Origin: a virus
DNA: 64,000 bases
IMG/VR virus record: IMGVR_UViG_3300028042_000006
Coordinates: 6,818-70,817 of that record
Direction: 5' to 3' (one strand)
In this document: in pieces, positions 23,161-41,951 of the stretch
Numbering within the stretch: the stretch's first letter is position 1
Layout of the letters: each line of letters opens with the position of its first letter
Notes under the pieces: model-generated
The model's database searches: none
What the model was told of the DNA's origin: nothing
The model's input: the letters and a program-made list of their open reading frames with translations, nothing else
Made by a program: the position numbers and the translations under genes

Positions 23161-23532
23161 GTGCAACACAAAAAACAAGCATTCAAGTTAATCGAAGAAA
23201 TTGTTCATCAGAACCAGACCGTATGGAATAACCCTAGAGGACAACTTGATGTTAAGCTTCAATATGACATGCTACGTGAAGAGCTTGAAGAGTTTAAAGA
23301 TGCATCAGATATGGTAGATTTAGCTGACGCAGCATTTGATCTATGGTATGTTGTTATAGGAACACTGAACCAAATTGGTTTCACTCCATCACAAATGGTT
23401 GATGGTCTTCAAATTGTACAAGATGCAAACGCACAAAAGTCTGGTGAAAAAGACGCTAATGGTAAAGTAACTAAACCAGAAGGCTTTGTTCCACCAGAGG
23501 TGAAACTTCAAGCTATTATAGATAGATTTTAA
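23161..23532 (+). CDS. MazG-like / PRA-PH nucleotide pyrophosphohydrolase
   Basis: LREELEEF...LADAAFDLWYV...G, DANAQK..G.KD.NGKV.KP.GF; GTG start with AAGGA SD. Confidence 0.85.
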   Translation: MQHKKQAFKLIEEIVHQNQTVWNNPRGQLDVKLQYDMLREELEEFKDASDMVDLADAAFDLWYVVIGTLNQIGFTPSQMVDGLQIVQDANAQKSGEKDANGKVTKPEGFVPPEVKLQAIIDRF

Positions 23533-26500
23533 TTCCAGTCAAGAATCAATCCTTTTCCACCTTTCACTGTATCAGTGATTGGATTTGGAAGCAAATTGTA
23601 TATTGGTGGAGTAGTCAATGTTTCAAAAATATTACTAGGATGCAAAAAGTGCATTCTGTTTACAAGTGAATCTATTGGCTGATAGTATGAGTCATCAGGT
23701 GTAGCAACATCTAATCCAGCTATAGCCTCTGCCGCAATAAATGATCCATAGTATGCAGGTGCCGCAGCAACAACTGTCTGCATGGCCTTAAGCTGTCTAA
23801 AGAAATACTTTGTAAACCAAACTCCAGCATGTTTATCCATGTATCTCAAATATCTATTATCGATATAACCATAGTTGACGAAAAGTTGATCGAGCATATT
23901 CAATAATCCCTGCTCGTCTTCATCGGTCATAATATAGCCTCTTCTCTTGGCTTCTGATTTCATTTTTTCAAACATGATCTGACGCGTAATAACATCTCCA
24001 TATTGAGTTAATTTCATCATTCCTTTAAACATAGCCGTATTTCGATCCATAGTAATAAACTCTTTAACACTTCGAACACCTTGAGGCACTCTTTTGTTAT
24101 TCATTAAATCTTCAATAGCTGTAGCAATTCTACCAGAAGGCGCATCTCCAACATTCACATCTTCAATAATAACTGAAAACTGACCATCGGCAACAAGCTT
24201 GTGGAACGGATGATTGTGTAGTCTCGTCTGAAGTACAGAAATTTGTCTTTTCAGTGTAGCATCTTCAGAACCACTGGCATGATATTCTGCCATTACATTC
24301 TGATATTTTTCATCAAGATCTCTATACTCATTTAGTTCAATCCATTTCTTACGAGCTTCAATTAGGAACTCATGAGGAGGAATACCTGCTCTCATCCAAG
24401 CAACAGCCATGTTTGAGACAAGGTTAGCCCACACAACAGAACCAGTTCTAATAACGATAGTTTCTTTTGCCCACTTTAGTATCTCTCCACTCAACCCCTC
24501 AACAACCATAAGAAGCTTACGCAATCTCTTGAAGTTTCTCATGTCAATTGGACCAAGATTAAAGTTACCGATGGTTGCACCTTTTTCACCAATAATAAGC
24601 TCAACCATGTCTTTTGGAATAACTAAGCGATGTGCACCAGTTTTTTCAAAAATATACTTACGAGTATATTCAGGAATTGTATTCCATCTTCCGTGAATAT
24701 TTTCATCAAATTTAACGTGATTACCATCTGCATCTTTACCGTTTTCTGGATATTTTTCAATCATCACGAAATCATCCGGATCTTCAAGATAATTCGTCTT
24801 AGAATAATCCAGCATTTTATCAATCACTTTTTCATTGTGAACTAGAGAGGCTTCTCTGTGAGTAAACTTTGAAAACGTGTAAGCTGCACTCTTCACTACA
24901 TCAAGTTCAGAACCAAGATGCTGAACTTTTTCTTGACGAGAAATGTCAAGCTTATAGTCTATGATACGACCTCTCATATCATAGACAGGAATAGCATTCC
25001 AGTCCCCTTCAAACGACATGATACTTGTGTCCGTTCCCCCACTATTAACAAACCGGATAATCTTATCCTCTACAATCTCATCAATTTTTGATGAAGATCT
25101 CTTATCTCTTTTGCTCAGTTTTTTGTCTTCTTCTCTCATCTGTTCAGACAATAATGATTTTAAACTCTTACCTGGAATTGGATTTCCTGCAATCGATAAC
25201 ATACCCTCATCGAAATCAGTTGTATATTCGTGACCAACAACCTTATAGTATTTGATACCACCAATTTTTCCGTAATAACCAATATTTTTCATTCGACCAA
25301 TTTTACCAGTATGGTAATCCAAGTCCTCTTCAGGGATCAATTCAAAAGTCATATTAGCTCTGTTCAGTTGATCAAAATAACCTTTTTGAATTGGATCATA
25401 CGCATTGGCTACTTTTAGCATATCTGCCTTTTTAACAACATACTCATCATACATGTTCAGAATACTCTTCATGTTCTTTGCATTTGTTTCATCACCAAGG
25501 TAGTTTGAGATAAGCTTTCTGTCTGAAGCTGGAGTTTCCTTGAGTGCTGCCAATGTGATAAATCTATTTAACTTGCTGATGATTTCACTATCTTCTTCGG
25601 TGTTGGTTCTATTTGAGTCAACACTTGAGATATGTACACCAAGGGCATCATCATATTCCAACGTAGAAGTGTAAAACTTATTGTAAATATTGTTTGCATT
25701 GATTTGCTGATTTGGACTATATGCTACACCAGTAGCCATCATCTTAGCCAAACCCTTTGCTTGTTCAATATCTGCAACCATCTCTTCAGATGTGCTAGAA
25801 AAAGGACCAAAAGCTGTTCTTCCTTTAGCATTGTAGAACTTTTCAATATCATATAAAGCATTCTGGTAAAGCGAATCAAGGTGATCATTGTTGTCATCTA
25901 GGATAATATCAAGATCACTATATCCAATACCATTCTTTGCATCAATAAGAGAACCAAGGTCAGTATTGAAAATAACAGTTGTGATAGCGTCCCTGGTTCC
26001 AGAATCAACACCTTCAACATATCCCTCGACTAATCTCTCGACAGCCTCAGATACCCCTTGACGGTGTTTCTCCATGTTGTTCTTGCCTTGTCTATACAGT
26101 GCATAAACATCTGCCCATTTGCTATCGTCTGTCTTCTTTGTGATGGTGGACAAAATACTTTGGAAAAAGTTTGATTCAATAATACGACCAAGAATTGCAA
26201 CATCCTTCATCTTTTCACCAATTTTTTTGAAAGATTCTTTTTTCTTGATTGCTTGAGTAAGATCTAATACCTTGGCATCAAACTTTTCAACATGAGGCTT
26301 GAGCTTATCATCCCAGTTATCAAGTGTGCTTTGATCACCTTTCATGAATGCATCTTTCTCCATATAATCACTCATGTCTAAATTGAATTGCTCTTCTGCC
26401 AGTTTGTTGACAGTTTCAGTTAAAAGCATTGCTGCCTTTTTCCCTCCAACTTGAACATTTGATGACCAAATTTTATTGATCATGTTGATGAATGCATTTA

Positions 26501-29500
26501 GTAATTTCTTGAAACTACCGATAGCTTTACCATCAGAATCATTCATCTTGAACGCATCAAGAACACCTTGCTCTGGAACAAAATTCTTAATTGTATGAAA
26601 TAAATCCTGGTTACTTAAGGCATAGGCCATGAACTCTTCTGGGTCAGAATATTTACCAAAAGCGTACTCATACTTATCTTTAGCACTTTCAATGTCAGCA
26701 GATGTAGGTTGTCTACCCTGCATCTGCATCCCTTGTAGGAATATCTCATAGGTAAGCCCTGTGCCATCAATCTGCTCTTTAAGGTTCTGTATCGCCTTCT
26801 TTAACTCAGGATTGTTTTGCATCGCTCTGTGGATCATAAAGTGAATCATTTCGTGCATGAAGATTTCACTTTTGGTAGCTGTACCAAACGCTTTGTTGTA
26901 TCGTATGGTTAGTTCAGCAGATCTATCAGCAAAAGTCTTGAGCGTACCAGCAGTATCTCTTCCGCTATTAGCAGAATGAAATAGTGCATCTTCTGCCAAC
27001 TTAATGTCACGAAGAGTAATCTTGCTATAGTTTGTTTTTTGAAGAACATTATCGAACCCGGTTAATACCTGCTCGATGTTTTCCATGAACTCTTGAGAAT
27101 AAAATGGATTTGCGCCATTGTGACCATTTTCCATTTCCTCAGATACATATTCACTGAATACATCAAAAATTCCAGAACCATCTTTTTGGAAATCGATTTC
27201 AGTCTTTGTTTCCGTATCTCCTAGAGATGGGTCAAACAATTGATCACCAGTACGTGTAGATGAGCCTTGCTCTGATTCAACTTTTTTCTTGATATTCTTA
27301 ACTCTTGGGGTACTATTTGTAGTATATACCGTGTAGTTAGCATCAATCTCATTCATGTAGTCAATAAACTGTTCATCAACACCTGGCATATCACCAACAA
27401 CAAAAGTAGTTTGACCACTGTTGAATTCTCTAATAAGTGTTTTTGTATACGCAGTAAGTGGTTGATTTCTAAGCTTTCCATTTCTAGCCAACATGACAAC
27501 AGATGGATTCTTTTCTTTAACAGCTATTGTTGCAGTCGTGCTTCCCTTATTTATGGATGTACGATGTTGACTTGAATTACTTTTAGCAAGAATTTCTTCA
27601 TGACTGGTTCTAGTAGAACTTTTGGTATCTCCAGAAACTTCACCAATGAAACTATCAGCAGCAACTCTCATTGCCTTATCTTTAGCATCACCAGCAGGAG
27701 TGCCCTTGCCTCCAGCATCTTGAATTACAACAATGTCTCCAGATTTGCCAGATAAATTTTTCTCTGTCGCTTTAATATTTTTAAATTTTTCAATTTGTAA
27801 TTTAATATACTCATTAATGTCTTCATGGTTACGCTTAAGCTGACCAAGTATTCTTGTATTAAAGTCTCTAATTGTTGCTGATCGATTTTTTCCACTACCC
27901 ATCATGTGCATATCTGTATCAGCAGAATAAACCGTAAACTCCTTGAGAAGTGGGTTGTATCCAATATACATTTTAATATCCGGAAGATCTTTATTTTTAT
28001 ACTCTTTAATTAGTAAAGTAACGCCATCTTCTTGAGCATAGTTAGTATGCTGTGTCCAGCCGTTGCCTTCTCCCACAACCTCTTCTTGAGCAATGTATTT
28101 AACTTGATCAAGCTCTTCTCTAGTGTGCATAGATTCAAACACAACACCTTTTTGGCTCGGTTTACCCATCATTCTATTGTTTGCATCTGGAGTCAAATTA
28201 ATTAAAAAGAACCAACTATCATCAACTTGAAATTTTGTATATCCATTAGCTTGATGCGTAATCTTAAGTCTTTCTCTCTCGAACTCCTCTGTGGTGCTTG
28301 TTCCGCTAGTTCCATTGTAGTATTTTTCAAAAGTCAAATAATCAGAAGGATCAACAATTGGAACGACAACAATGTTGTCAAAATTTGGATCACGATATGT
28401 TTTACCTGCTTCAAAACTAGCAACATTAAATGTTTCTAAGTCACCGTATGGATCAATAGAACCAGCATTCAATTTCTCATGGATAGCAGAGTACATCGAT
28501 TCACTAAATATAACATTCGATGGTCTTCCTGCTACTTTTTTGGCACCAGCATATTGCTGTTCAGCCATAGCAAACATTTGAGCCATAGCATCACCATCAA
28601 TTCCTTTTATCCCGGTATTAAAAGTGTTGTAACCAACCAAGAATTTCTTGTCTGGATTGTTTTCAGCATGTTCAAAAAACTTAAACATACCAAGCACATT
28701 AGCATTTTTATTTCTAGGTTCAAAACCAAACTTCCATGTTTGATCAGAATCCCAATTATTGGTCTTGATAACAATACCAGCACCACCAGCTTCATAGCTA
28801 CCACCTGTGTCAGTATATGCTGTGACAAACACTTCATCTTTGGCTAATACAGCAATAGCTCCTACATAATGAGTTTTTGTATGTGAAGGATAATGTTGTG
28901 TGTCAACTCGTTCTCCAGAAAGTATACGTTTACGAACTTTCTCCATCACCTTACCAGTGTTGTTTACACCAAGTAAAGATTTTGCTTTATACTTAGTGGA
29001 TGCACCCCATACATTATCTTCTGGCACTTTTCTAGCTTTGGCACTTGGGTCCATTTCCTCAACAAAAGCAAAATCACGAAAAACATCAATAAATTCTGCC
29101 AACAACAAGTCTGTTGAAAACTTATGAAACATAGCTCGTTCCATGATTTCTGCACGATCAAGATTGTTAAGTTTTACTTTCCCTTTCCAATTGTCATCTT
29201 TAAAGCTATATTGTTTTGCCTCAAGACCAGACAGCTTAGAAAGAGCAAGTCTGTGATGACTGTTGGGGGAATACTGCTCTGCCATAAAATAAGCTTCAAC
29301 ATTCCCATACATAATGCCAGTGCTATCGGCAATAGGAACAGCAAGGTTTGCAAAATTGGATAGTGCTGCTGCAGGTAACTCTTTACCATTAAAGCTGATA
29401 ATGGCTTTTGATTTTGAATTAAATAAAATAACATTGTTATCTGTTAATGCTTCAGAATAATCTGTCACCTGGTTCAACACAGGAGAACCATCATACTTTT

Positions 29501-29684
29501 TTGGATCTGCCTCTATTTTATTTCCTTCGAGAAAATCAGTCTGAGAGTCAAACAAAACTTTAGATTCATTTCGTTTAGCACTCATGGTCTTCTCTTGAAC
29601 AGCTAAAAGTTTAGTAGCCTCGCTCTCAGTAATTCCTAGTTTTTTCATAACCTCTGATATAGCAGCTGATTGTGTACAGATCAT
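23529..29684 (-). CDS. giant ejection protein C: N4 vRNAP C-terminal-domain homolog with NADAR, macro-like, SLOG-like and zincin domains
   Basis: C-terminal QYGDVITRQI...LFVNYGYIDNRYLRYMDKHAGVWFTKYFFRQ resembles the N4 vRNAP end; HEMIH; LSNF/DNVWG/GVNNTG NADAR motifs. Confidence 0.8.
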   Translation of the reverse strand: MICTQSAAISEVMKKLGITESEATKLLAVQEKTMSAKRNESKVLFDSQTDFLEGNKIEADPKKYDGSPVLNQVTDYSEALTDNNVILFNSKSKAIISFNGKELPAAALSNFANLAVPIADSTGIMYGNVEAYFMAEQYSPNSHHRLALSKLSGLEAKQYSFKDDNWKGKVKLNNLDRAEIMERAMFHKFSTDLLLAEFIDVFRDFAFVEEMDPSAKARKVPEDNVWGASTKYKAKSLLGVNNTGKVMEKVRKRILSGERVDTQHYPSHTKTHYVGAIAVLAKDEVFVTAYTDTGGSYEAGGAGIVIKTNNWDSDQTWKFGFEPRNKNANVLGMFKFFEHAENNPDKKFLVGYNTFNTGIKGIDGDAMAQMFAMAEQQYAGAKKVAGRPSNVIFSESMYSAIHEKLNAGSIDPYGDLETFNVASFEAGKTYRDPNFDNIVVVPIVDPSDYLTFEKYYNGTSGTSTTEEFERERLKITHQANGYTKFQVDDSWFFLINLTPDANNRMMGKPSQKGVVFESMHTREELDQVKYIAQEEVVGEGNGWTQHTNYAQEDGVTLLIKEYKNKDLPDIKMYIGYNPLLKEFTVYSADTDMHMMGSGKNRSATIRDFNTRILGQLKRNHEDINEYIKLQIEKFKNIKATEKNLSGKSGDIVVIQDAGGKGTPAGDAKDKAMRVAADSFIGEVSGDTKSSTRTSHEEILAKSNSSQHRTSINKGSTTATIAVKEKNPSVVMLARNGKLRNQPLTAYTKTLIREFNSGQTTFVVGDMPGVDEQFIDYMNEIDANYTVYTTNSTPRVKNIKKKVESEQGSSTRTGDQLFDPSLGDTETKTEIDFQKDGSGIFDVFSEYVSEEMENGHNGANPFYSQEFMENIEQVLTGFDNVLQKTNYSKITLRDIKLAEDALFHSANSGRDTAGTLKTFADRSAELTIRYNKAFGTATKSEIFMHEMIHFMIHRAMQNNPELKKAIQNLKEQIDGTGLTYEIFLQGMQMQGRQPTSADIESAKDKYEYAFGKYSDPEEFMAYALSNQDLFHTIKNFVPEQGVLDAFKMNDSDGKAIGSFKKLLNAFINMINKIWSSNVQVGGKKAAMLLTETVNKLAEEQFNLDMSDYMEKDAFMKGDQSTLDNWDDKLKPHVEKFDAKVLDLTQAIKKKESFKKIGEKMKDVAILGRIIESNFFQSILSTITKKTDDSKWADVYALYRQGKNNMEKHRQGVSEAVERLVEGYVEGVDSGTRDAITTVIFNTDLGSLIDAKNGIGYSDLDIILDDNNDHLDSLYQNALYDIEKFYNAKGRTAFGPFSSTSEEMVADIEQAKGLAKMMATGVAYSPNQQINANNIYNKFYTSTLEYDDALGVHISSVDSNRTNTEEDSEIISKLNRFITLAALKETPASDRKLISNYLGDETNAKNMKSILNMYDEYVVKKADMLKVANAYDPIQKGYFDQLNRANMTFELIPEEDLDYHTGKIGRMKNIGYYGKIGGIKYYKVVGHEYTTDFDEGMLSIAGNPIPGKSLKSLLSEQMREEDKKLSKRDKRSSSKIDEIVEDKIIRFVNSGGTDTSIMSFEGDWNAIPVYDMRGRIIDYKLDISRQEKVQHLGSELDVVKSAAYTFSKFTHREASLVHNEKVIDKMLDYSKTNYLEDPDDFVMIEKYPENGKDADGNHVKFDENIHGRWNTIPEYTRKYIFEKTGAHRLVIPKDMVELIIGEKGATIGNFNLGPIDMRNFKRLRKLLMVVEGLSGEILKWAKETIVIRTGSVVWANLVSNMAVAWMRAGIPPHEFLIEARKKWIELNEYRDLDEKYQNVMAEYHASGSEDATLKRQISVLQTRLHNHPFHKLVADGQFSVIIEDVNVGDAPSGRIATAIEDLMNNKRVPQGVRSVKEFITMDRNTAMFKGMMKLTQYGDVITRQIMFEKMKSEAKRRGYIMTDEDEQGLLNMLDQLFVNYGYIDNRYLRYMDKHAGVWFTKYFFRQLKAMQTVVAAAPAYYGSFIAAEAIAGLDVATPDDSYYQPIDSLVNRMHFLHPSNIFETLTTPPIYNLLPNPITDTVKGGKGLILDWN

Positions 29685-29693
29685 TTGTATTCC

Positions 29694-32600
29694 TTAACAG
29701 TTTTGGTACTTCATGATGACATCTTGTAAATAAGTTGTCAGATCTCTCGCGTTCTTTATCTCATCATTATACTTGATTTTTACTGGTTTCAGTACCATTG
29801 TTGCACCATTTCCAGCTTTCTCATCATTCACGTATGAATTTGAAATAAGATAGTTGTAGATCATAATTTTATGAATTTCAATCTTCATTGTTTCATACTC
29901 ATCATCAGGAAATTTCTGCTTTAACAAATATCGTATAGTGCTATAGCTTAATGCCTGACCAAGACCAGATGGGCTTGTATGCTCTAGTGCCGTCTTATAT
30001 TGGTAATCAAACGAAGGAAGAACCAGTGTAGCATTTGAAGCAATTGCATTATCAATCTTCTGATATTCATACTTCAATCTTCTCTCTTGGTTCAATACAT
30101 TTTCATTATCAAAAACAACAGCAATGACAGACTTATTATTATAAGAACCAGAGTTTCGTTTGTTCATACCGCTCATCTGTTTTGCAATTTTTGTCTCTTT
30201 GCTTCCCCCGATTAGCTCAACAGCTGTGTCTTTAGCTAATGATTCCGCAAGTTTCAATGTATCATAGTCTTCTGGTCTTACTTCCTTTTGATCATCTATT
30301 AGATTGTTGATATGTGATCGTTGGTTCTTAAGCTCAACGCCCATAACCTCATTGAACATATCAATTACTGAAGATAAATCAATATCTCTTTTGCTGACAC
30401 CTGTTCCGTCTTTGTGAACCATAGGATTTTGCAATGCAGATGGCATGTGATCAACACCAAATTTTTGTTGCAAATTCTTATGGCGTGTGGTTCTTAGTGC
30501 CTCTGTATCTTGTAATACTCTAGTGATGTCAAAAATCGATAAATCAATTGATCCTAGTTCGGTCAAGAATCCATTTTTTACGTCAGGCACTTCATAGTAT
30601 GACTCTGTTGTTGTGTCTCCATCAGAACGAGTACCAGGGTCTTTAACAATGTCAGGCAAAGCATTATCAATGAATAATTTAATATCCGTATCGCTTAATG
30701 TATAGCTCTTTCCTTCATGTGTGTATTTCCCGTTAGCATCAATAGTTTTACCGTTTAGTCTAGCTGATACCGGAGAGTACCATAAGGATTCAACGAGATT
30801 ATCAACATAATTGATTTCATTTCCTGCCTCATCGAGGACAGCTTCACCATTCAAAAATTTAGTAACATTTTCTTTACCATTAATTCTATATTCAACTTTT
30901 AAGTTTGAATAATTTTGATTTATTCTTTTTCCATTATGAATAAAGAATACTGATGAATCTTGATAGTTCACATTTTTTCTTCTGACTATCTGTGTTACCT
31001 CTGCATGATTTTCAAACTTTTTGACAACCATTGTATTTGATATGTTTTTTCCCCTTGGTTTGCTGATATCTGCACCAGACTCAGGATCAATTTCTTTTTT
31101 CTTGCTGAGGGTGGTCCAGTATATTCTTTTGACAATACTATTGTTTGAACTTGCTTTATCGCTTGTTTCAACTTGATTGACATAACCACGAGATCCACCA
31201 ATTTCATTTCCAGTTTTCTCTTTGTTTTTTTCAGTGTGCTTCACTCCAATAGATCCATCTTCATTGATGAATATAGCCGGAGCAAACACCAAAGCTTTCT
31301 TAAGGACATGTATTTCACTATATGTATCCATTACAGTAGGAGAACTAAATACTTTTTTCATCTCTCTGACCGAGTACATTCTGTTCTTGATTGTTTCAAG
31401 CTCAGTGTTGGCTTCAGCAGCGATAACCGAGTCTTTAGAACCAAGTCTTAACTTGATATCGTCCAGCATAAACACAAGCTTATTTACCGTGTCTCCAAGT
31501 ATCTCTCTTGTAGAGTTTTGATCAAAAATTACATTATTGTAATCCGTTGTACTTGCAATTACATTATCTGGATTTGATGCCTGAACTACTGCATCGTAAA
31601 TTGATAACCAACTGTTCCCAGAAATAGTAGCCATAATAGCACCAGAATCCTGCTTGTGAATAGATACAGTAGGCGCACCTCTAGGGTTAGAAGCATAAGA
31701 CATGTTAACTAGCATTGCATAGAGTCTATCTTGCTCATTTTTCTTCTTCTGGTCAACGACTCCATCTTTGTCTGTATATTTAGATTCATCAAAAGTATAT
31801 GTGAATGATGCAGTATCTACATCACTTTTCTTGTCTGCTTTATACATAGGAATAGCATTTCCAGACTTAGGATCACCAATTACAATCTCGTGGTTGAATC
31901 CAGACTCTCTGATTTCATCCAATACAGCATCTATATCTTCTTTGCCAATAGGTCCCTTTTCAAGAAGTTCAGCTTTTCGTCTTTCCATCTTAGCATTGAA
32001 GAATTCAAAGTTTACAATTTCAAGTGTCTTGACCATTTCACGATACTTGTTGACAGAACCAAACTTCTTATCGAATGCTTTTTCAATACTGCTACCAAAG
32101 GTATAATCAACAGCACCAAGTAAAACCTTATCAAACTTTTCATCCAATTTGATACGCATAAATACGTCAGCCATCTTCCACTGGTTCTCTTGTGCCATTA
32201 CAAGAATCTCTTTATAGCTTTTGCCTACAGTTTTGCCATGCTCATTGATAACTTCAAATTTCAAATACTTAACGACAGGAAAATCTGCATCTGGATTTCT
32301 CTCTTGAAATGCTGCCTTTTCTTCATATAAGTGCTTGTCCACATAGACATCAAGAACACTCTGAATATAAGCCAACGCTAGTTCTTTTTCATCCTCTTGC
32401 TTCCCGGTGATTTCATCTTTAGTATTTAACTTCTTGTAGGTCTTCATTGCTTTGATGAATGAGGTCTTACCCACCGTGTTACCAAGGTTTCTACGAATAG
32501 ACTTTATCGATGCACCATAGATGAAATACATAACCGGATACTTCGCAACATTTCTAAGTTTTGCTGGAGTAATTTCACCAATGGAATCAAGCATTACTTG

Positions 32601-35600
32601 AACCAGCTTCAACTCATTAATTTTAACCTGCATACTGTTCATAGTTCTCTGCTCTGATTTACCGAGCTTCCCATAAGAACCCATCTTATTAAGTCTGTTT
32701 TCCAGCTCGTCAACGGCAGTATTAACGTCTTTTTTAATCATACGAACCTCGGCAACCATTTCAACACCGACAGTCTTGTAGAGGTCATTAAAGACTTCTT
32801 TCTCCCTAAGAAACTTGTGAACGTCTGCTGTTTTACCAGTATTGTCGGCAAACAAACTTCTGTCAGAATTCTTATCACCAGTAATCAAGTTTAGTGCAGG
32901 GGCATGATTAAATATCCACTCTTTAATATTGATCTCTTTACCATGTATATTTTTCATGGTATCTTTACCAGTCTCAAGTGCATCGAGTATTTGTTGGTGG
33001 AAGTTACCAGCTTCAATCAATGATGGTGGATCAAAGTGTATATCTTTGCCCTCAAGATACTCATCTGAATCAAACAGATACTTCATCTGTAGCATAGCTT
33101 TAGAATAATCAGACCACTTCTGTTCCATAGCTTCTGTAAAGAAACCACCCTTTGCAAGAAGCTCAATAGAACTTTCATCCATAATTTGGAATAGAGTAAG
33201 CATCATACCCGATGTAATAGCATCAGTTTCAAGTGTAAGCTCGTTTCGGAACCCACCCTTCATTCCGCCTTGCTTCCACTGATATAAGTCTCTGATTGCT
33301 CTCATAGCTTGTAATCCATGAAAACCTTCGCCTTCATCAAAAATCTCAGCATAGTGTTCATACAGTTCATGTATTGGTTTATCACTTGTGGCAATCGCTT
33401 CTACTGCTTTGGCTAAGTCACTGGTTCCGAATTTGATTGAATCTCCACGCAAGTCAACCACATTACGAACATTAATCAAAGAAGTTCGTAATGAGTTCTT
33501 GTCTGGGTCCATGTCTAACCCTTGACCTATTGCTAGTTCCATTGCCATCATGTTCTTGCTGCCATCTTTAAAATCAGAACCAGTCATCTCATACGAATGT
33601 CCCTCATACTTTGACTTGGCATCCGATTCTTGCTCTATAAATGAACGAGCAAACTTAGACTCTTGTGGTTGCAAGTCATTTGAAATCATAGCTCTACCAT
33701 TTACTGGCTGTACCCACTCTAGGAAAAATCCATCTTTTCTAAAGTCACGATTAGCATAGGTCATAACCATGATGTCAAGCTCTCTACGCATCTTGTCATT
33801 AACAGATCTTAGTTGCTTAATTTCATCAATATGATGCTTGTTGAGGTCAGGCTCTACATAGCCATTTGCTTTAAGAAAATTGAAGAAATTATTTTCTGCA
33901 ACTTCTTGCTCTTCGGCTGTATTGCTGTCAATATCTTTTGCATCCCTAAGCTTTACATATTCATCATAAAATGGTTTCATGGTCGATTTGAATTGCCACT
34001 TCACAGAATTTTGCTTTGTTGCAAACTCTTTGAAATCTTCAGTAGCATTTTGAGTAGAACCAACCATCTTATCTTGAACCGAACTAGGTTGCATAGACGG
34101 AAGGGGTCTTCGTCCATTTTCACTTAAATGCTGAAGCTTATTGATAGCTCTGAACGCATCCTGATACTCATACTCTGGATACTTGTTTTCAAGTTGATTT
34201 CCATTTTTATCAACTCTGTTATTTGTAATTTCAAAAGAATCAGTGTTGAACATGAAAAATGCAAGGTTCTTGTCACCAAAATCAAATTGTGACTCTATGG
34301 TTTTGAATGCTTCAGATGCTTCCTTGTTGTACGATACTTTTTGATCTTTAGTGAGATCATTATATTCTGACACAGAAAATGTAGCCAGTATGGCAGTTCT
34401 CATTTTATTTTTTGCGCGTTGAATTTCTTTGTCAGATGAAACGTAATTAACATACTTGCTGTTCGCCAAAGTAGAACGTATATGTGTATTAATAGAAGCG
34501 AGTAGTCCCTCTTTTATTTTCATGTTCATTTTTGCATTGACACCAATACCAAGTTCGTCAAATACTGCTTTGGCTGCATCACCAATAAAACTTGATGCAG
34601 GAATCATGTTATTTTCAAGCAACTTGTCTTTAAAGTGTATCGCTTGTTCAAGACTATCAAAAGAAAATATCTTTCTAATTTCATCAACATTTTCATTTTT
34701 CAAATCATCAATCATGGCCTTCATATCAGACATAGCTTTCACAGAAAAGAACTTAATCATTTCATTGTATGCTTCTGGCATTATTAGTTCGGAATAATTT
34801 TCAGTTTTATTTTTAACGTGTTTCTGCTCTTCTGCTAACAAAAACAAATAGTTTGGAGAAATATATTTACTGTTCTTTTTCTGTACTATCTCGCCATCTT
34901 CTGCTACTTTCCAGTTGTTTTCACCGTTGACTTTTTCAACCGGAACCGTCAGAGAATCCATCAATTTTGAGAACGCAGGAAGATCTTTATTTTCAAATCT
35001 TTTGATTTCAGCATCATCAACAAAATCAAAAATAATTTGACGTATTCCAGTAGGCAAAGAACTCTTTAATACTTCGACTGCATTGTTGTAGTCAGTCTTG
35101 TCTTCTTTTGCATAAAGTTCACTAAGACTAGAAATGAGCTTAGTGTGTGTAGAAAAAATTGAACTCTTAAGTTTGCTCTTAAACATCTGACGTTCAATTG
35201 GAACAGTACCGTCTTTAGCTATTGGATGCTTTGATCTGATATTGTGAAAAATTTGTTCTTGAACACTTCTTTGTGCAAGAGGATATTTATCTGTATCGGC
35301 ATACTGACTAGAGGCATACTGGTCAACCTCGTATGGTATAGTCGGCAATAGTTCATCTGGTTCTAGGTTTGTCTCTTTGTCAAGTAAAACAAAACCAGTT
35401 TCAATATCAAATACTCTATACCCACCATCACGCAAGATTGTACCGTACTTCTTCCCATCTAATACAGAAATATTGAGCTTAGGCTTCGCTCCCTTGTGCA
35501 TTGAACTGATCTTCATCAAGTTGGCATTAATCCTGCCCTCACCATTTGATGCACTCACATTGCCATTATCTATAGACTCTTGGATATATTCATTCTCACT

Positions 35601-35873
35601 AAGAAGAGCCTTGATATCATCGCCCTTGTATGTCTTGACGGCATAGATCTTCTCTGCTTTTGTAATCTGAATTTCTGGCTCATATTTGTAATACTTGTTT
35701 GCCTCAAGAAGATTATCTTTTTGTTTCCCAAAAACAGGCCGTCCAATCTTGTTACTCAGCTCGTCAATAAGCAAGACCTTACCCATGAGAGAATATTCTT
35801 TGTTTTCTCCAGATATTTTCTTACTAAGGTTGCGTATTGCTATTCGCTCTGTTTTTGAAAATCCACAATTCAT
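29694..35873 (-). CDS. giant ejection protein B: virion single-subunit (T7/N4-type) RNA polymerase
   Basis: PVNGRAM (DxxGR-equivalent), motif A LETDAITSG, motif B RNVAKYPVMYFIYG, IHKQDSG, motif C WLSIYDAV, in the correct order. Confidence 0.88.
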   Translation of the reverse strand: MNCGFSKTERIAIRNLSKKISGENKEYSLMGKVLLIDELSNKIGRPVFGKQKDNLLEANKYYKYEPEIQITKAEKIYAVKTYKGDDIKALLSENEYIQESIDNGNVSASNGEGRINANLMKISSMHKGAKPKLNISVLDGKKYGTILRDGGYRVFDIETGFVLLDKETNLEPDELLPTIPYEVDQYASSQYADTDKYPLAQRSVQEQIFHNIRSKHPIAKDGTVPIERQMFKSKLKSSIFSTHTKLISSLSELYAKEDKTDYNNAVEVLKSSLPTGIRQIIFDFVDDAEIKRFENKDLPAFSKLMDSLTVPVEKVNGENNWKVAEDGEIVQKKNSKYISPNYLFLLAEEQKHVKNKTENYSELIMPEAYNEMIKFFSVKAMSDMKAMIDDLKNENVDEIRKIFSFDSLEQAIHFKDKLLENNMIPASSFIGDAAKAVFDELGIGVNAKMNMKIKEGLLASINTHIRSTLANSKYVNYVSSDKEIQRAKNKMRTAILATFSVSEYNDLTKDQKVSYNKEASEAFKTIESQFDFGDKNLAFFMFNTDSFEITNNRVDKNGNQLENKYPEYEYQDAFRAINKLQHLSENGRRPLPSMQPSSVQDKMVGSTQNATEDFKEFATKQNSVKWQFKSTMKPFYDEYVKLRDAKDIDSNTAEEQEVAENNFFNFLKANGYVEPDLNKHHIDEIKQLRSVNDKMRRELDIMVMTYANRDFRKDGFFLEWVQPVNGRAMISNDLQPQESKFARSFIEQESDAKSKYEGHSYEMTGSDFKDGSKNMMAMELAIGQGLDMDPDKNSLRTSLINVRNVVDLRGDSIKFGTSDLAKAVEAIATSDKPIHELYEHYAEIFDEGEGFHGLQAMRAIRDLYQWKQGGMKGGFRNELTLETDAITSGMMLTLFQIMDESSIELLAKGGFFTEAMEQKWSDYSKAMLQMKYLFDSDEYLEGKDIHFDPPSLIEAGNFHQQILDALETGKDTMKNIHGKEINIKEWIFNHAPALNLITGDKNSDRSLFADNTGKTADVHKFLREKEVFNDLYKTVGVEMVAEVRMIKKDVNTAVDELENRLNKMGSYGKLGKSEQRTMNSMQVKINELKLVQVMLDSIGEITPAKLRNVAKYPVMYFIYGASIKSIRRNLGNTVGKTSFIKAMKTYKKLNTKDEITGKQEDEKELALAYIQSVLDVYVDKHLYEEKAAFQERNPDADFPVVKYLKFEVINEHGKTVGKSYKEILVMAQENQWKMADVFMRIKLDEKFDKVLLGAVDYTFGSSIEKAFDKKFGSVNKYREMVKTLEIVNFEFFNAKMERRKAELLEKGPIGKEDIDAVLDEIRESGFNHEIVIGDPKSGNAIPMYKADKKSDVDTASFTYTFDESKYTDKDGVVDQKKKNEQDRLYAMLVNMSYASNPRGAPTVSIHKQDSGAIMATISGNSWLSIYDAVVQASNPDNVIASTTDYNNVIFDQNSTREILGDTVNKLVFMLDDIKLRLGSKDSVIAAEANTELETIKNRMYSVREMKKVFSSPTVMDTYSEIHVLKKALVFAPAIFINEDGSIGVKHTEKNKEKTGNEIGGSRGYVNQVETSDKASSNNSIVKRIYWTTLSKKKEIDPESGADISKPRGKNISNTMVVKKFENHAEVTQIVRRKNVNYQDSSVFFIHNGKRINQNYSNLKVEYRINGKENVTKFLNGEAVLDEAGNEINYVDNLVESLWYSPVSARLNGKTIDANGKYTHEGKSYTLSDTDIKLFIDNALPDIVKDPGTRSDGDTTTESYYEVPDVKNGFLTELGSIDLSIFDITRVLQDTEALRTTRHKNLQQKFGVDHMPSALQNPMVHKDGTGVSKRDIDLSSVIDMFNEVMGVELKNQRSHINNLIDDQKEVRPEDYDTLKLAESLAKDTAVELIGGSKETKIAKQMSGMNKRNSGSYNNKSVIAVVFDNENVLNQERRLKYEYQKIDNAIASNATLVLPSFDYQYKTALEHTSPSGLGQALSYSTIRYLLKQKFPDDEYETMKIEIHKIMIYNYLISNSYVNDEKAGNGATMVLKPVKIKYNDEIKNARDLTTYLQDVIMKYQNC

Positions 35874-35882
35874 TATCTTCCT

Positions 35883-38800
35883 TTATATATCACAATTCTT
35901 ATCTACTTCATTCAAAAATTCCTGAATAGCCTTGTCGCTTTCGATCAAAGCTTTAGCTTCAGCCTCAGTCATTGGTGCTTGAGAATTATCATCATAATTA
36001 TACCCTCTTAACCATTCTTTTGTTTCACTGTCTAGTTCAACAGCTTCAACTTCTGATTCAGAACCAGTCTCTTCTGTCGCTCTTGCATTAGTAATAGCCA
36101 AGGCTTCATTGAATGCTTGTCTGTTCGCAAGGCCAATACTATCACCACCCATAGGCAACATTGTCTCTCCACGTAACTTCACTGCAATGGTGGCATGAGG
36201 GAAAGGCTCGCCTAGTTTAATATCAAAAAGGTTTTCTGCATTTTGTCTAATTGCATCTAGCTCGGCAGAATTAAGCTCAACAATAAGTGACTCTCTTGTG
36301 TGCTCTTCTTGATACTTGTTCTTTGGATACTGCTTAGATAATCTAACTGGCTTACCAGCTACACTGATAGTATCTTCAAATATATCAAGAGATGCTCTGA
36401 AGGAATCCATTTTCATTTTACGTTCACTGTCCGTCAGACCACTATTTGCAAGAGATTCATTGATTTTTCTCATATCAGCAAATCCAAATAATGTCATGTG
36501 CATTTCATCTTTTGCAACCATGTCTGATGGTATATCTAATCCAGACAAGTCAATCTTCCCACCAAGATCAGCCATTACTGACTGTATGACACCATCTTTC
36601 TCGTTGATCTTGTTTGCTACAACGGCACCAGAGTCATTCCTATTTTTAGACCTAGCTTCTTCTGCTTCTATCTCGGCATCAATGGTAGCTTGATCAACAC
36701 CATCAAGATTCATTTTGCGTCTTCCAATTAAGAATTCTTTGTATGTTTTAAAATCAGCAGTATTGTTTTTGTCGCTTAAGTAGACTTCCTTTTCGCGATC
36801 ATATTCTTCTGCCATTTCCTTAGCATACCATCCTAGAGGCTTATTCTGGTAATCAAAATCTTTGCCACGTTTTATATTCTTGAGTTTCGAGTGAACATTG
36901 CGATAAAATTTTGCAATTTGGGGGTGGTTCTCAAATGTAGTCTTGAGATTCACACCAAAGAAATCAATCAACCCATAATCTTTTTCTTTAGGTATCTGTT
37001 CAAAATGCTTTTTAAACTCTTTGATATCATTCAATAAAGACTGTGCATCATTAATAGTTTGCATCACTTCACTTGTAGATGCACCATCTGAAATCAACGA
37101 TTCGATAGCTTGAAGTCTATACTTGAACTTTCTCTTGTGTTCAACATCAGCAATAAGACCATAAGCTTTTTTACCAAGTAGACGTATTTTCTTACGAATA
37201 TTAGATATGATCTTCTTCATAGCATCAATCTTAGAACCAAGCCAACTAGCATTTTTATTGATAGACTTTAGATCTTCTGCATTAGCTTTGTTCGCATCTT
37301 TCTCGGAAATAAGTTCAGCCCTCAAATCATTTAGTGCAGCAACATCTTTACTAATACTTTTTTCAACATTTGCAATCACACGCTTGAGTGCCGGAGTCAT
37401 CTGTTCTTTATCACTATCTTTAAGATCAGCAAAAGTATCAGCAATAACCGTAAGGATTGTATCAATGTCATCCACAACAAGCTCAGGTTGACTCTCAATG
37501 AACGTAACAACATTATTGAATGTCTCCATTGCCGTTGCAGGAGTTACAGGCTGAGACTCCTCTGTAGCTGGATTTCCAGTGTCTTGTCCTTCAAGAAGCT
37601 TAACCACTCTATCGATCTCTACATACAGATCATTAGTATGTGCGCCAAAGTTGTCTTTTATTGGACGAACATCTGTATTGATTTTTGCAATATGCTCGTT
37701 GTCACTGTATTTACTATCACTAGACATTACGGTTGGCATATCACCAATCTGATCCATGACGTTGCCAACTTCAGCATCAAGCTTCTCTGCAACCTCTCGT
37801 AGCTTTGTGCTTCCATAGTAATCATTAATTTCTGGACCTGATGTTTTGTTAAACCATCCGTCTTCACTGATTCCAAATACCGGATACCACTTTCCTACTT
37901 CGACATCTTTTTTACCACCAGAACCAGATGACACGTAGAATGGCATTAAGAATCCATCAATATCAACAAGAACAAATGGTCTACCTGAGATATTCAATAA
38001 ACGATTCGTGCCACTTATTTTGATCCTATCCGTAGAACCCTCTTCTCTGTCTGGGTCCATAATTGCACCAGACCAAGGGATATCAACACCACCTATATTC
38101 TTGACTTTTTCTTCGAGCTTTTGATATGAAGTCAATGCAGAACCAGTATCTTCTTTGACATTGTATTCTTCATCGAATAACCATCGAATATCTTGATCAA
38201 CAATAGCGTTGTCCACGTTACCATTATAGTCTTCTAGTATTTTCTCCAAGAGATCCTGGTTCTCAAGTTTACCAAGCTTCTTTTCTAGTGCAATTCTGTA
38301 TCTCTTCTGCTTGTCAGTTTCGGTTCCAATATCTTGAACGTCCAGAAGGTCAGCATAAGTCTTAATCTGTTCCTTGAACTTATCAAACATTTCTTGATCA
38401 AATTCAATCGGTTCAGATGACTTTGTTTCAGAACCAGTACTCTTCTTCCCACCCTTGCTGTTATTCGATTGGCTTTTACTTTGTCTTTCGATTACACCAT
38501 CTGTGCTGATGTCACCTATAGATGATGTACCATCGAGTGCAAGAAGTCTATCTCTTTTACTTGCAAGTGTGCCTTCCAGTGTAGGAAATGAATTCATTAA
38601 GTCAACAGCATTTGGTCCAAAGTGTGGACCAGATGTTCCATCTTTGCTTTGTGTGTAGTCGGTGAATACATGAGACAACACATCAAGGTGCTCTTTGTTG
38701 TTGATATCAAATCCACTTACACCAAGATTTTTCTGAACAAAAGATTCAATGTTTCCAATGTGTGCATTCATCAAACTCTTTGCTGATGCAAGTTCTGATT

Positions 38801-41800
38801 TCGTTGCTGCAATATGACCATTGATAACAGCAGTCTGCTCAGGAGTAAGGTTCTTGTCTCCTTTGGCACCCATAAGCATCTCAAGTTTAGCTGTCGTAGC
38901 GTCAAACCAGTCATTCTCTTTCTGCATGTTCATTAGGTTCTGTATAGTATGTTTTGCAGACTTTACATCGCCTTTTTTACTAATAGAAGTGTTTAGTTTT
39001 CGTGCTCTTGATTTAGCCCAGTTTGTAAAGGTTTCAAAGTTGGCAGACCCATTACTTCCGATAGCTTGGTTCAGTTTAGAACCAATGTTCTTTGCCTTAT
39101 CATCATTCATGATTTGCTCAAGAAGTACTTCGTCATACTCTTTCATGGACGGCTTAATACGAACAACTTTTTTACCATTTTCATATTTGATCTCGATGAA
39201 ACCAAAGTTTTCAATTTCGTTGGTTACATCATCAAAATATTTATCATTTTTTTGATCACTATATTTTGCCAAAATACCTTCAAGAGTCTTGAGGTTTAAT
39301 CCCTCTGGATTTGTATAGAGTATATCATCAGAAACCTCGACAGGATTTCCTTCAATGAAAGCAAAAGAACCTTGTGTGAAAGCCGCTTGATGTTGCTTTT
39401 CGTAGAGTATCTTTTTTCTCCATTCATGTGCAGTAGTATTCCTTCTAAAGTTCTTCATGTCAGCAATCTCTTGAGAGGTCGGTTCTTTCATGAATTTCAT
39501 TTTGTATTCGCGTATTTCTTGATCCACATTCTCTGCATCAATCATAGCTTGAGTAAATGCTTTTGAGAATTGTTGCATTCTACTATCTAGCATATCTCCA
39601 GTATCGAAATCAACATTAGGATCTTGATGTAGCTTGTGTGCAAGTTTCAGGATATTTTCCATAGCTTCAGGACGAGCCATCTGGTTCATCTTTTCACCCA
39701 TATCAAACGCTGTATCTATTATGTTCTGAATATATTGTTTTTGCAATACTTTTCTAGTATGAGCATCAAGATTTTTCCCACCAGAGTATCTATCAACCAT
39801 AGCATTTGCAGCCTTTACGATAGTAGCTGGATCTCCAGTCTCCAAGTCAGCAATAGAACCAGCGGCACCAGGTGTAGCCAAACTTGTAGCTACTTTATTA
39901 ATGATTGTATTTGCAGTAATGGCTGGATCTTCAAAGAGATCCTTAGTGGTTCTTACTCCGTCAGCCTTACGCTTCTCTTCACTGTTTAACATGTAGTTTC
40001 CAGAAGCATAAGCTCCAGATACGGCAGAGGTTACTGTAGCAATTTGTCCACCAGCACCAAGTCCCCCAGCAAGACCCAGCATTGCCTCATGTTGTAGTTT
40101 TTCATCGTTAAAAATATCTTTCATAGAGACACCATCTATGCCATAATTTGCAATGATGATTTCACCCCAAGTTTGAGTATATTCCTGTGCAGCCTCAGTA
40201 CCAGAATCAATAGCAATATCTTTTGCCTTCTTCAGTACAGCAAGAGTAAATGCTCTCTTTCCTGTATTATCAAGTGCATCGATAGTTTTATTCAATGCTC
40301 TTTTGATATTTCTATCAATGAGTTCTTTACCTTTTCCAAATTTTAAAAGGTTTTGACCAGATAATCTTTCAACACCAAGTAGTGCAGTAGTCAAGGCGAA
40401 TGATGATAATACTTCCATCATGTTTACTTCACCCGGTTCACCTGCAGCAATCTTGTTGGCTATCCGTTCATTGAGTTGATCGTTGGTTAGGATTGCACTC
40501 TGGGAATAGAACCCTGCATATCTAGCCAAGTGAGACATTGCCTCTAATGTTTTAGGTGCTTGTTCAAATATTTTGTAGGTTTTGTATGCGTTTTCTGAAA
40601 CCTGACCAGACTTTACATATCCTTTTACAGTATTAGTAATGAATGATTCAGTCTTTCCAAGTTTTCTCATCTTAGAGATTGTACTTGCAAGTTTAGCAGC
40701 AGCAGCAACTCGCCCACCTGGTAGTGGAGTAGCAGCCATAATCATCATAGGTAAAGACTCTATTGCAACTCCAGGATCACTCATGGCAGTCGTAAACCCA
40801 CCAAGAATATCTCCATTCTCAAGTTTCCATGCAGCTTCATTTAGTGCCTGGTTCGACTCTGTTCTGTCGTAGCCTACTTGCTTGTCAACCCATTCTTGGG
40901 TATTAACATCGTTAAGCCATTTATTGTCTCCACCGGGAGAAAACATATCTAGTAGCCAGTCAGCACCACCAACACCAAGCTTGACAAGTCCAGCCTGTAA
41001 AGCATCAAACCCATTAGAACCAGCTATCCTAGTAGCATTACGTTCATTCATGAGCTGTTCTGATATTTGTGCATTTCTAGCAAATTCTACATCAGTAGGA
41101 TCTTCGCCACCAAGAAGATTTCGGTTGTATTGTTCTGTGTATCCAGCACCGAAATTAGCATTAGATGCCTTATCTGTACCCATTCGGACACCATCTTTTT
41201 CAACGCCACCCTCATCAAATACACGAGCATTAAGAGATTCAGTTAGTGCATGAAGAGTATTCTCCCACTTCTCTGCACCCTTAAATCTTTTCTCTTCAAC
41301 GATTTCAAATCCATCTTCCATCCATTGGCTCTTATATCTATCAGCTGCAGAAACTTCTGCCATACCATGCTTGTAGATATATTTAGAAGAACCATCTTCA
41401 TTAAATCCATCGAAACGTCTTAGTGTATAAATAGCCTTGTCAGCCATAGGATCATATTCTGCATTTTGATATTCTCGAACCAGTGCTTCAAGTGTAGTAT
41501 TTTCGGCAGCACCAAAATCCTTGTTGGACATGCTGTGCTCTTTACCGTCACGAATAGCCTTCATACTAGCATTGTCTAGCCAGTCACCTTGACCAACATC
41601 GAGTAGGTTCTCTGATGCCTCTAGTACCCAATCAACGGCACCAACGGCAGCATTGTATGCACCCTTTGCTGATAGCGCAACAGAACTGTCAGACTCCAAT
41701 GATCCATCTGAATTTTTATGAAGGTTATCAGTTTTACGATAGATCTCTCCAGACTTAAGCTCTTTGGCTCTTTCGATCTCATAAAACTTTCTAGCAAGTG

Positions 41801-41951
41801 CATCACCCTTGGCAACAGCTCGTGCTATTCTGTTTTCGGTTTCTTCTGGTGAGCGAGACTCGGCTCCACCAGTGTTGTAAAAATCATCTATATCTGTAGT
41901 GTCTATACTGGAGGTGTCCTCGCCATAGAATGCCGCTATTTCATCTGCCAT
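35883..41951 (-). CDS. giant ejection protein A: N4 vRNAP N-terminal-domain equivalent with T5orf172-like and 2H phosphoesterase domains
   Basis: Gly/Ala helical DSGTEAAQEYTQ...LGLAGGLGAGG region as in ejection-protein N-termini; HMTL and HATI motifs; position upstream of the RNAP gene. Confidence 0.72.
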   Translation of the reverse strand: MADEIAAFYGEDTSSIDTTDIDDFYNTGGAESRSPEETENRIARAVAKGDALARKFYEIERAKELKSGEIYRKTDNLHKNSDGSLESDSSVALSAKGAYNAAVGAVDWVLEASENLLDVGQGDWLDNASMKAIRDGKEHSMSNKDFGAAENTTLEALVREYQNAEYDPMADKAIYTLRRFDGFNEDGSSKYIYKHGMAEVSAADRYKSQWMEDGFEIVEEKRFKGAEKWENTLHALTESLNARVFDEGGVEKDGVRMGTDKASNANFGAGYTEQYNRNLLGGEDPTDVEFARNAQISEQLMNERNATRIAGSNGFDALQAGLVKLGVGGADWLLDMFSPGGDNKWLNDVNTQEWVDKQVGYDRTESNQALNEAAWKLENGDILGGFTTAMSDPGVAIESLPMMIMAATPLPGGRVAAAAKLASTISKMRKLGKTESFITNTVKGYVKSGQVSENAYKTYKIFEQAPKTLEAMSHLARYAGFYSQSAILTNDQLNERIANKIAAGEPGEVNMMEVLSSFALTTALLGVERLSGQNLLKFGKGKELIDRNIKRALNKTIDALDNTGKRAFTLAVLKKAKDIAIDSGTEAAQEYTQTWGEIIIANYGIDGVSMKDIFNDEKLQHEAMLGLAGGLGAGGQIATVTSAVSGAYASGNYMLNSEEKRKADGVRTTKDLFEDPAITANTIINKVATSLATPGAAGSIADLETGDPATIVKAANAMVDRYSGGKNLDAHTRKVLQKQYIQNIIDTAFDMGEKMNQMARPEAMENILKLAHKLHQDPNVDFDTGDMLDSRMQQFSKAFTQAMIDAENVDQEIREYKMKFMKEPTSQEIADMKNFRRNTTAHEWRKKILYEKQHQAAFTQGSFAFIEGNPVEVSDDILYTNPEGLNLKTLEGILAKYSDQKNDKYFDDVTNEIENFGFIEIKYENGKKVVRIKPSMKEYDEVLLEQIMNDDKAKNIGSKLNQAIGSNGSANFETFTNWAKSRARKLNTSISKKGDVKSAKHTIQNLMNMQKENDWFDATTAKLEMLMGAKGDKNLTPEQTAVINGHIAATKSELASAKSLMNAHIGNIESFVQKNLGVSGFDINNKEHLDVLSHVFTDYTQSKDGTSGPHFGPNAVDLMNSFPTLEGTLASKRDRLLALDGTSSIGDISTDGVIERQSKSQSNNSKGGKKSTGSETKSSEPIEFDQEMFDKFKEQIKTYADLLDVQDIGTETDKQKRYRIALEKKLGKLENQDLLEKILEDYNGNVDNAIVDQDIRWLFDEEYNVKEDTGSALTSYQKLEEKVKNIGGVDIPWSGAIMDPDREEGSTDRIKISGTNRLLNISGRPFVLVDIDGFLMPFYVSSGSGGKKDVEVGKWYPVFGISEDGWFNKTSGPEINDYYGSTKLREVAEKLDAEVGNVMDQIGDMPTVMSSDSKYSDNEHIAKINTDVRPIKDNFGAHTNDLYVEIDRVVKLLEGQDTGNPATEESQPVTPATAMETFNNVVTFIESQPELVVDDIDTILTVIADTFADLKDSDKEQMTPALKRVIANVEKSISKDVAALNDLRAELISEKDANKANAEDLKSINKNASWLGSKIDAMKKIISNIRKKIRLLGKKAYGLIADVEHKRKFKYRLQAIESLISDGASTSEVMQTINDAQSLLNDIKEFKKHFEQIPKEKDYGLIDFFGVNLKTTFENHPQIAKFYRNVHSKLKNIKRGKDFDYQNKPLGWYAKEMAEEYDREKEVYLSDKNNTADFKTYKEFLIGRRKMNLDGVDQATIDAEIEAEEARSKNRNDSGAVVANKINEKDGVIQSVMADLGGKIDLSGLDIPSDMVAKDEMHMTLFGFADMRKINESLANSGLTDSERKMKMDSFRASLDIFEDTISVAGKPVRLSKQYPKNKYQEEHTRESLIVELNSAELDAIRQNAENLFDIKLGEPFPHATIAVKLRGETMLPMGGDSIGLANRQAFNEALAITNARATEETGSESEVEAVELDSETKEWLRGYNYDDNSQAPMTEAEAKALIESDKAIQEFLNEVDKNCDI

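Follow-up and report, generated by a model that had tools for sequence, protein, structure and literature searches.

Here we describe three consecutive genes, A, B, and C, on a 64,000-nucleotide (nt) stretch of viral DNA (positions 6,818-70,817 of IMG/VR record IMGVR_UViG_3300028042_000006), referred to as the window, whose coordinates are used below. By sequence comparison, the three products are a split variant, in three parts, of the N4-type virion RNA polymerase (vRNAP). At each of the two junctions between them (J1 between A and B, J2 between B and C), a single cysteine (Cys) near the C-terminus of one protein faces a single Cys near the N-terminus of the next. This facing pair of terminal Cys, each within about 5 residues of its end and lost on fusion, is a conserved rule of the family, which we propose here. 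Of the explanations considered, we lean towards a head-to-tail disulfide tether that would keep the A-B-C chain continuous during ejection and would be reduced in the cytoplasm.

The 6,132 residues of A, B, and C together contain exactly four Cys (A-2020, B-3, B-2059, and C-3). All four are junction residues, none of the proteins has an internal Cys, and the outer ends of the chain, the N-terminus of A and the C-terminus of C, have none. An earlier sequence-only reading of the window had located four Cys at the two internal junctions and none at the outer ends, and a computed recount returned the identical residues and codon coordinates. The other 34 long open reading frames (ORFs) of the window contain 86 Cys in 12,213 amino acids (aa), or 0.70%. 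At that frequency 43 Cys would be expected in A, B, and C, with a Poisson probability of about 3e-14 for four or fewer. The probability that four randomly placed Cys would fall one per internal terminus, within 3 residues of it, is about 1e-12. We also counted no Cys in the 3,500 aa of the fused N4 vRNAP, gp50, as the earlier reading had held, and published statements agree (PMC11445570, PMC2784036).

Relatives were collected with a word-indexed search using B, which returned 22 homologues, and with an exhaustive HMMER search using the RNA polymerase (RNAP) core, which gave 96 representatives at no more than 50% identity. Genomic context was read for 12 relatives, drawn from NCBI/ENA assemblies, IMG/VR contigs, and the cultured Alteromonas phage AD45-P1. 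The junction tally of 19 consists of the window's own two junctions and those at the loci of 11 relatives, with the junction of locus L015 counted separately. Every one of the 19 tallied junctions has one Cys per side, as does the 20th from L015. Within the 19-junction tally, 38 of the 40 Cys in 52,926 aa are junction-terminal. The rule holds in two-, three-, and four-part chains and extends to mini-links of only 232 and 274 aa, and no chain has a Cys at either outer end. In B homologues at 24-41% identity, Cys is restricted to the termini in almost every complete protein. Of the 96 representatives, 51 end on their C-terminal Cys, and in none does this Cys lie more than 4 residues from the end, while the N-terminal Cys lies at position 3-7. 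In an alignment of B homologues (alignment A1), the column of the C-terminal Cys is invariant. The homologues compared share no conserved motif around the junction Cys, which makes an enzyme recognition signal unlikely.

Some of the related proteins have features of their own. Locus L011 (3-11167) encodes a four-part chain of at least 712, 1517, 274, and 1215 aa, and locus L002 (10001-23869) encodes a chain of three proteins, the middle one only 232 aa long. In both loci, the mini-links match the last ~200 residues of B and have one Cys at each end. Representative P0017 contains an FtsK gamma domain, a DNA-binding winged-helix domain, at residues 2486-2543, immediately ahead of the Cys at its C-terminus (Pfam 7.5e-10, above cut-off). 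The 3491-aa P0040, in which the N-terminal and RNAP parts are fused, has five extra Cys clustered toward its N-terminus, at residues 230-466, and is the sole clear departure from Cys avoidance among the homologues collected.

The terminal Cys co-vary with the splitting of the genes. Architecture was judged without reference to Cys, from the point at which the RNAP domain starts within the protein. When it starts before residue 900, as in proteins split at J1, all 31 complete subunits have the N-terminal Cys; when it starts after residue 1200, as in proteins fused at J1, none of the 48 has it. Two fully fused relatives (4202 and 3382 aa) have no Cys at all. A FastTree phylogeny of the RNAP domain contains at least eight architecture changes, and Cys follows architecture in six of six independent contrasts (sign test p = 0.03, an indicative value on a tree with local supports only). 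At locus L010, the A protein (1372 aa, Cys-ended) and the B protein (beginning MTC) are 48% and 43% identical, respectively, to the corresponding halves of P0065, a fused protein. The only Cys in P0065 is its last residue, with none at the position of the L010 A/B junction. Four proteins at first seemed to be exceptions to the N-terminal rule. P0035 matches a longer protein exactly across the domain they share, P0008 is almost the same as P0005 but ~360 aa shorter at its N-terminus, and P0024 begins at a scaffold gap; these three were set aside as gene-call fragments. P0091 was set aside because its gene opens the operon and has no partner ahead of it on the same strand.

That terminal Cys should track split versus fused architecture in relatives was a check set beforehand in the sequence-only reading, and the outcome is strongly positive. 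It also carries over to the crAss-like phages named there, with the rule holding in crAss001 and phi14:2. The same reading had suggested that the facing Cys re-join the pieces head to tail. The comparison supports the view that the facing termini function in pairs and that this function is conserved; a head-to-tail link would explain it most simply.

The polymerase function is assigned to B. In an alignment of the concatenated chain, B residues D884, K1111, Y1119, and D1427 share columns with D1556, K1667, Y1675, and D1948 of N4 gp50, its catalytic residues, which correspond to D559, K670, Y678, and D951 of the mini-vRNAP (PMC2784036). A pairwise BLASTP comparison of B and N4 gp50 was marginal (E 0.037), and the homology is transitive via L003. 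DNA and protein searches with B against 50,697 phage records gave no match, and outside metagenomes the B family is known only in AD45-P1. Because sequence searches of the PDB with A, B, C, and the A1 profile gave no match, N4 mini-vRNAP included, the link between B and N4 was made through intermediates and the motif alignment. Pfam returned nothing above threshold for A and B, and the precomputed Pfam labels on homologues, PF21867 and PF21894, were not reproduced at E <= 0.001.

The relationship of C to N4 gp50 was detected directly. Residues 848-1977 of C match phrog_2206 with an E value of 2.9e-69 (profile positions 2267-3351 of 3406), C is matched in 443 Schitoviridae phage records by tblastn, and BLASTP places C against residues 3131-3448 of N4 gp50 with an E value of 6e-16. 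The HEMIH motif of C aligns with HELVH of N4 gp50 (about residue 2228). Closer to its N-terminus, C contains a NADAR-like domain, matching PF08719 (E 3.4e-7; 31.1 bits, below the 35.1 cut-off) and phrog_1017 (9e-13), which suggests enzyme cargo that may be delivered together with the polymerase. NADAR is also present in the last chain protein of L010. A is assigned as the equivalent of the N4 N-terminal domain by position and by the A-type partners in relatives only.

The gp50 family is defined by a single ~3,500-aa polypeptide; the window has three ORFs, each terminated by a stop codon. The splits map to about residues 964-1019 (J1) and 2040-2171 (J2) of N4 gp50, approximate positions in a region of low-identity alignment. 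The borders of the mini-vRNAP in N4 gp50 are reportedly 998 and 2103, and the split points appear to be close to them. The mini-vRNAP is 1106 aa long (PMC3821669). From the homology and from the position of A, B, and C in a structural operon by the portal and major head genes, we infer that the three proteins are packaged and ejected.

If the facing Cys form a disulfide tether, A, B, and C would associate non-covalently in the infected cell and be packaged through C. Once the virion is in an oxidising medium, its facing Cys pairs would close as inter-chain disulfides, and A-S-S-B-S-S-C would become a quasi-linear thread of ~690 kDa whose side stubs are only 2-4 residues long. This thread would be pulled N-terminus first, at least partly unfolded, through the portal-tail channel, which would give a fixed order and a 1:1:1 ratio. 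The reducing cytoplasm would then cut the links and free the polymerase from envelope-bound A and from C, while the ban on all other Cys would prevent wrong links. A continuous thread would be needed because A and B lack a packaging domain, an injection domain is missing from B and C, and non-covalent contacts would not survive unfolding. In N4 vRNAP, according to the summary in PMC3821669, citing Kazmierczak 2002, the C-terminal domain is for encapsidation and the N-terminal domain for injection. Schitoviridae ejected proteins avoid Cys, probably owing to their passage through the periplasm and tail channel (PMC11445570, PMC3821669). Podophage cargo must at least partly unfold to exit the tail, and the crAss001 virion contains disulfides (PMC10172136).

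Several points weigh against the disulfide tether. The bacterial cytoplasm normally does not form disulfides, so the link would close only after packaging or release, and packaging would use other contacts. Some of these phages, crAss001 among them, have strict anaerobes as hosts, which makes spontaneous oxidation less obvious. The sole public run found to contain part of the stretch 29694-35873 (20% of sampled words), and with it a relative of the window phage, is labelled as a hydrothermal vent metagenome, a label that bears on whether the virions meet oxidising conditions. Single-sequence AlphaFold2 predictions of the two junctions reached a pLDDT (predicted local distance difference test) of only 41 and 33. 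The constructs were read-through versions with TAA read as Gly, the output held no Cys-Cys distance, and the helices predicted on either side of each junction are unreliable at these scores. A has no significant match to N4 gp50, Pfam, or PHROGs. Finally, a few homologues have one extra internal Cys, and P0040 has five.

Of the alternatives to a disulfide, a metal clasp survives best. Here the facing thiolates, perhaps together with adjacent Asp or Glu, or as four Cys from two chains, would bind zinc or another metal, and such a clasp would survive the reducing cytoplasm. It would also explain how the pieces cohere before the virion meets oxygen. Glu, Asp, or Asn is found at position -1 in 52 of 96 cases and at +1 in 16 of 34, and N4 virions presumably hold several copies of vRNAP, which we counted in favor of a clasp. 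However, known intermolecular zinc clasps and hooks use two Cys per chain (CxxC or CxC). The termini here contribute strictly one each, neither a His nor a second Cys is conserved, and the residues next to the Cys are not conserved. We regard metal binding as unlikely.

The terminal Cys could also be unpaired across the junction, each instead attaching its protein to another target, such as the portal, an inner capsid protein, another copy of itself, or an adduct formed with a small molecule or lipid. Which thiol meets which cannot be read from sequence alone, and crAss001 virions have several structural disulfides. Against this, at all 20 junctions the C-terminal Cys has a counterpart at the N-terminus of the following protein, the outer ends of chains are never Cys-bearing, and both Cys disappear together on fusion. 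Candidate partners such as the gp51/gp52-like proteins are themselves Cys-free. Separate partners for the two Cys therefore seem quite improbable.

A third explanation involves the zincin-like HExxH of C, whose zinc could be capped by a terminal Cys and the enzyme kept latent until ejection, as in pro-matrix-metalloproteinases. The HEMIH at residue 944 of C, with its HELVH counterpart in N4 gp50, would provide the site, and the phi14:2 gp65 family has been described as zincin-like (10.1101/2020.03.07.982082). Yet Cys pairs are equally present at J1, far from the zincin, even in relatives split at J1 only (L006 and L007), and fused vRNAPs retain HExxH without any Cys. In addition, a single capping Cys would suffice, rather than a matched pair. 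We consider such a switch very doubtful.

Equally far-fetched is a covalent re-ligation that would rebuild one polypeptide by splicing-like chemistry (thioester, Asn cyclisation, or a reaction like native chemical ligation). The sequence-only reading had raised this option because Asn precedes three of the four window Cys. This idea did not hold up, since Asn is not conserved in homologues, preceding the C-terminal Cys in only 20 of 96, with MNC in 3 of 34. There are no intein (Hint) blocks, with only 0-4 residues past the C-terminal Cys and 2-6 residues before the N-terminal Cys, and Pfam gave no intein match. Ligation chemistry needs Cys as residue 1, and the N-terminal Cys is not residue 1. 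A split intein with protein trans-splicing was likewise rejected, as there are no flanking Hint fragments and the Asn is not conserved.

The least credible option, with next to no probability in our view, is that the Cys have no meaning at the protein level and reflect read-through of a 6,141-codon frame, a DNA or RNA signal containing TGT, or a scar of splitting. It derives from the continuous frame shared by A, B, and C, in which the sole breaks are two TAA codons, with a Shine-Dalgarno-like spacer of 9 nt after each, an arrangement also present in L001 and L010. In contrast, 13 of the 19 tallied junctions shift frame or overlap (ATGA, or a -11 nt overlap), the stop codon may be TAA or TAG, Cys is encoded by TGT in some cases and TGC in others, and spacer length ranges from -11 to +12 nt, while the Cys persist at 24-40% identity in proteins otherwise purged of Cys. 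Because frames, stops, and Cys codons vary among junctions, the signal is at the protein level. Stop-codon read-through is rejected by the reading frames in relatives, and the shared frame in the window is probably a trace of recent splitting or a common gene-junction geometry. The start codons of the genes are secure, as there is no alternative start between the upstream stop and each ATG, and a Shine-Dalgarno-like AGGA/GGAA precedes each ATG.

The positions of the genes, junctions, and Cys codons are given in Table 1. An N4-like structural module adjoins A, B, and C and includes the portal (phrog_1216) and major head (phrog_1357) genes. The two small proteins directly upstream of A gave no family match and were called gp51/gp52-like from their size, order, and lack of Cys. 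An arrangement of small, Cys-free ejection proteins next to the vRNAP is a Schitoviridae trait (PMC11445570). The Cys-rich ORF in the structural operon was considered as a phage thiol oxidase and rejected, with no Pfam or PHROG match.

Table 1 Features of the A/B/C locus and its surroundings (window coordinates).
Feature	Position	Strand	Description
Gene A	35883-41951	minus	2022 aa; first link; positional equivalent of the N4 gp50 N-terminal (injection) domain
Gene B	29694-35873	minus	2059 aa; middle link; RNA polymerase subunit by sequence comparison
Gene C	23529-29684	minus	2051 aa; last link; N-terminal enzyme modules, then N4 gp50 C-terminal (encapsidation) domain
A Cys2020 codon TGT	35892-35894	minus	third residue from the C-terminus (...KNCDI-stop)
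Junction J1	35874-35882	minus	9-nt spacer AGGAAGATA, Shine-Dalgarno-like, between TAA of A and ATG of B
B Cys3 codon TGT	35865-35867	minus	MNC...
B Cys2059 codon TGT	29697-29699	minus	last residue (...YQNC-stop); invariant column in alignment A1
Junction J2	29685-29693	minus	9-nt spacer GGAATACAA between TAA of B and ATG of C
C Cys3 codon TGT	29676-29678	minus	MIC...
RNAP core of B, residues 560-1480	31434-34196	minus	T7/N4-type motifs A (D884), B (K1111, Y1119), and C (D1427)
C residues 848-1977	23754-27143	minus	homologous to the C-terminal third of Schitoviridae vRNAP
HEMIH motif, C residues 944-948	26841-26855	minus	zincin-type
NADAR-like domain, C residues 98-254	28923-29393	minus	profile matches
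Two Cys-free proteins, 431 aa and 154 aa	41976-43740	minus	directly upstream of A; N4 gp51/gp52-like position (DEV gp72/gp73)
260-aa ORF, 12 Cys (4.6%)	47230-48012	minus	within the structural operon

Literature searches for any description of a Cys clasp found none, and the junction-cysteine rule appears to be undescribed in print. As a wider proposition, to which we would give an even chance from the sequence comparisons, short-tailed phages of two kinds, N4-like and, independently, crAss-like, may join the pieces of their giant polymerases by single terminal disulfides into one thread of fixed order that is cut by the reducing cytoplasm. If true, this would represent a general "molecular train" for protein ejection and give a reason why such proteins tolerate no other Cys. 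The lack of Cys in N4 vRNAP would turn from a curiosity into a design rule, with no stray thiols where specific ones are used. How podophages eject megadalton amounts of protein through a narrow tail, ordered and in ratio, would have a concrete answer in the clasp, one that can be tested at the bench in culturable systems that already exist (AD45-P1, phi14:2, and crAss001). Facing terminal Cys could also aid annotation by distinguishing true gene splits from sequencing frameshifts and by marking virion proteins that travel together. In the window, the thread would also carry enzyme modules (the NADAR-like domain and others), and the clasp may set their order of delivery into a defended cell.

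The closest known systems are the vRNAPs of Schitoviridae, such as coliphage N4 gp50 and Pseudomonas phage DEV gp71. Like the window proteins, they contain a T7-like single-subunit RNAP with identical catalytic residues and a homologous C-terminal HExxH domain, and they share the suppression of Cys (PMC11445570) and, with A placed by position, the injection-polymerase-encapsidation order. In both, the vRNAP is located behind two small Cys-free ejection proteins (DEV gp72 and gp73) in a late structural operon. Whereas N4 and DEV have one polypeptide of ~3,400-3,500 aa without Cys, the window has three genes totaling 6,132 aa with Cys at the facing ends, and the extra length of its chain includes the NADAR-like module and others. 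Alteromonas phage vB_AmaP_AD45-P1 is a cultured phage: its N4-like vRNAP is split after the polymerase domain (ORF127/ORF126; PMC3821669) into two parts, versus three in the window. It follows the same rule, with Cys2493 in a 2495-aa protein followed by Cys4 in a 1409-aa protein. The AD45 paper took the "two cysteines" to mean that the protein is probably not injected and did not note their facing terminal placement (PMC3821669).

The crAss-like phages also encode giant virion cargo proteins in sets of three, of which the second is the polymerase and the third is zincin-like. For Cellulophaga phage phi14:2 (NC_021806, L014), Cys is the last residue of gp67, gp66 has Cys3 and Cys2179 of 2180 residues, and gp65 has Cys3. 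For crAss001 (MH675552, L013), gp47 has Cys2339 of 2341 residues, gp50 has Cys5, Cys1334, and Cys2404 of 2412, and gp49 has Cys5. The crAss-like polymerase is of the two-barrel (DFDxD) class rather than T7-like (10.1101/2020.03.07.982082). The crAss001 trio also differs from the window in that its gp50 has one internal Cys and its gp47 is encoded on the strand opposite to that of gp50 and gp49, which makes the rule independent of gene adjacency. N4-like and crAss-like chains both end in a zincin-like protein, and these final links may be related. Neither the crAss001 structure paper (PMC10172136) nor the phi14:2 polymerase preprint (10.1101/2020.03.07.982082) mentions the terminal Cys.

Two further systems offer functional analogies only. 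In AB toxins such as diphtheria toxin, the clostridial neurotoxins, and ricin, one disulfide joins two chains during unfolded translocation. Cytosolic reduction then releases the active chain. The toxin chains come from one cleaved precursor, their disulfide is not terminal, and they have no homology to the window proteins, which are separately translated, would be linked end to end, and would be transported through a phage tail. Von Willebrand factor and the gel-forming mucins build long threads via disulfides between terminal domains. These domains are Cys-rich and form head-to-head and tail-to-tail homo-oligomers in the eukaryotic secretory pathway, while in the window a single Cys at each extreme end would join different proteins head to tail.

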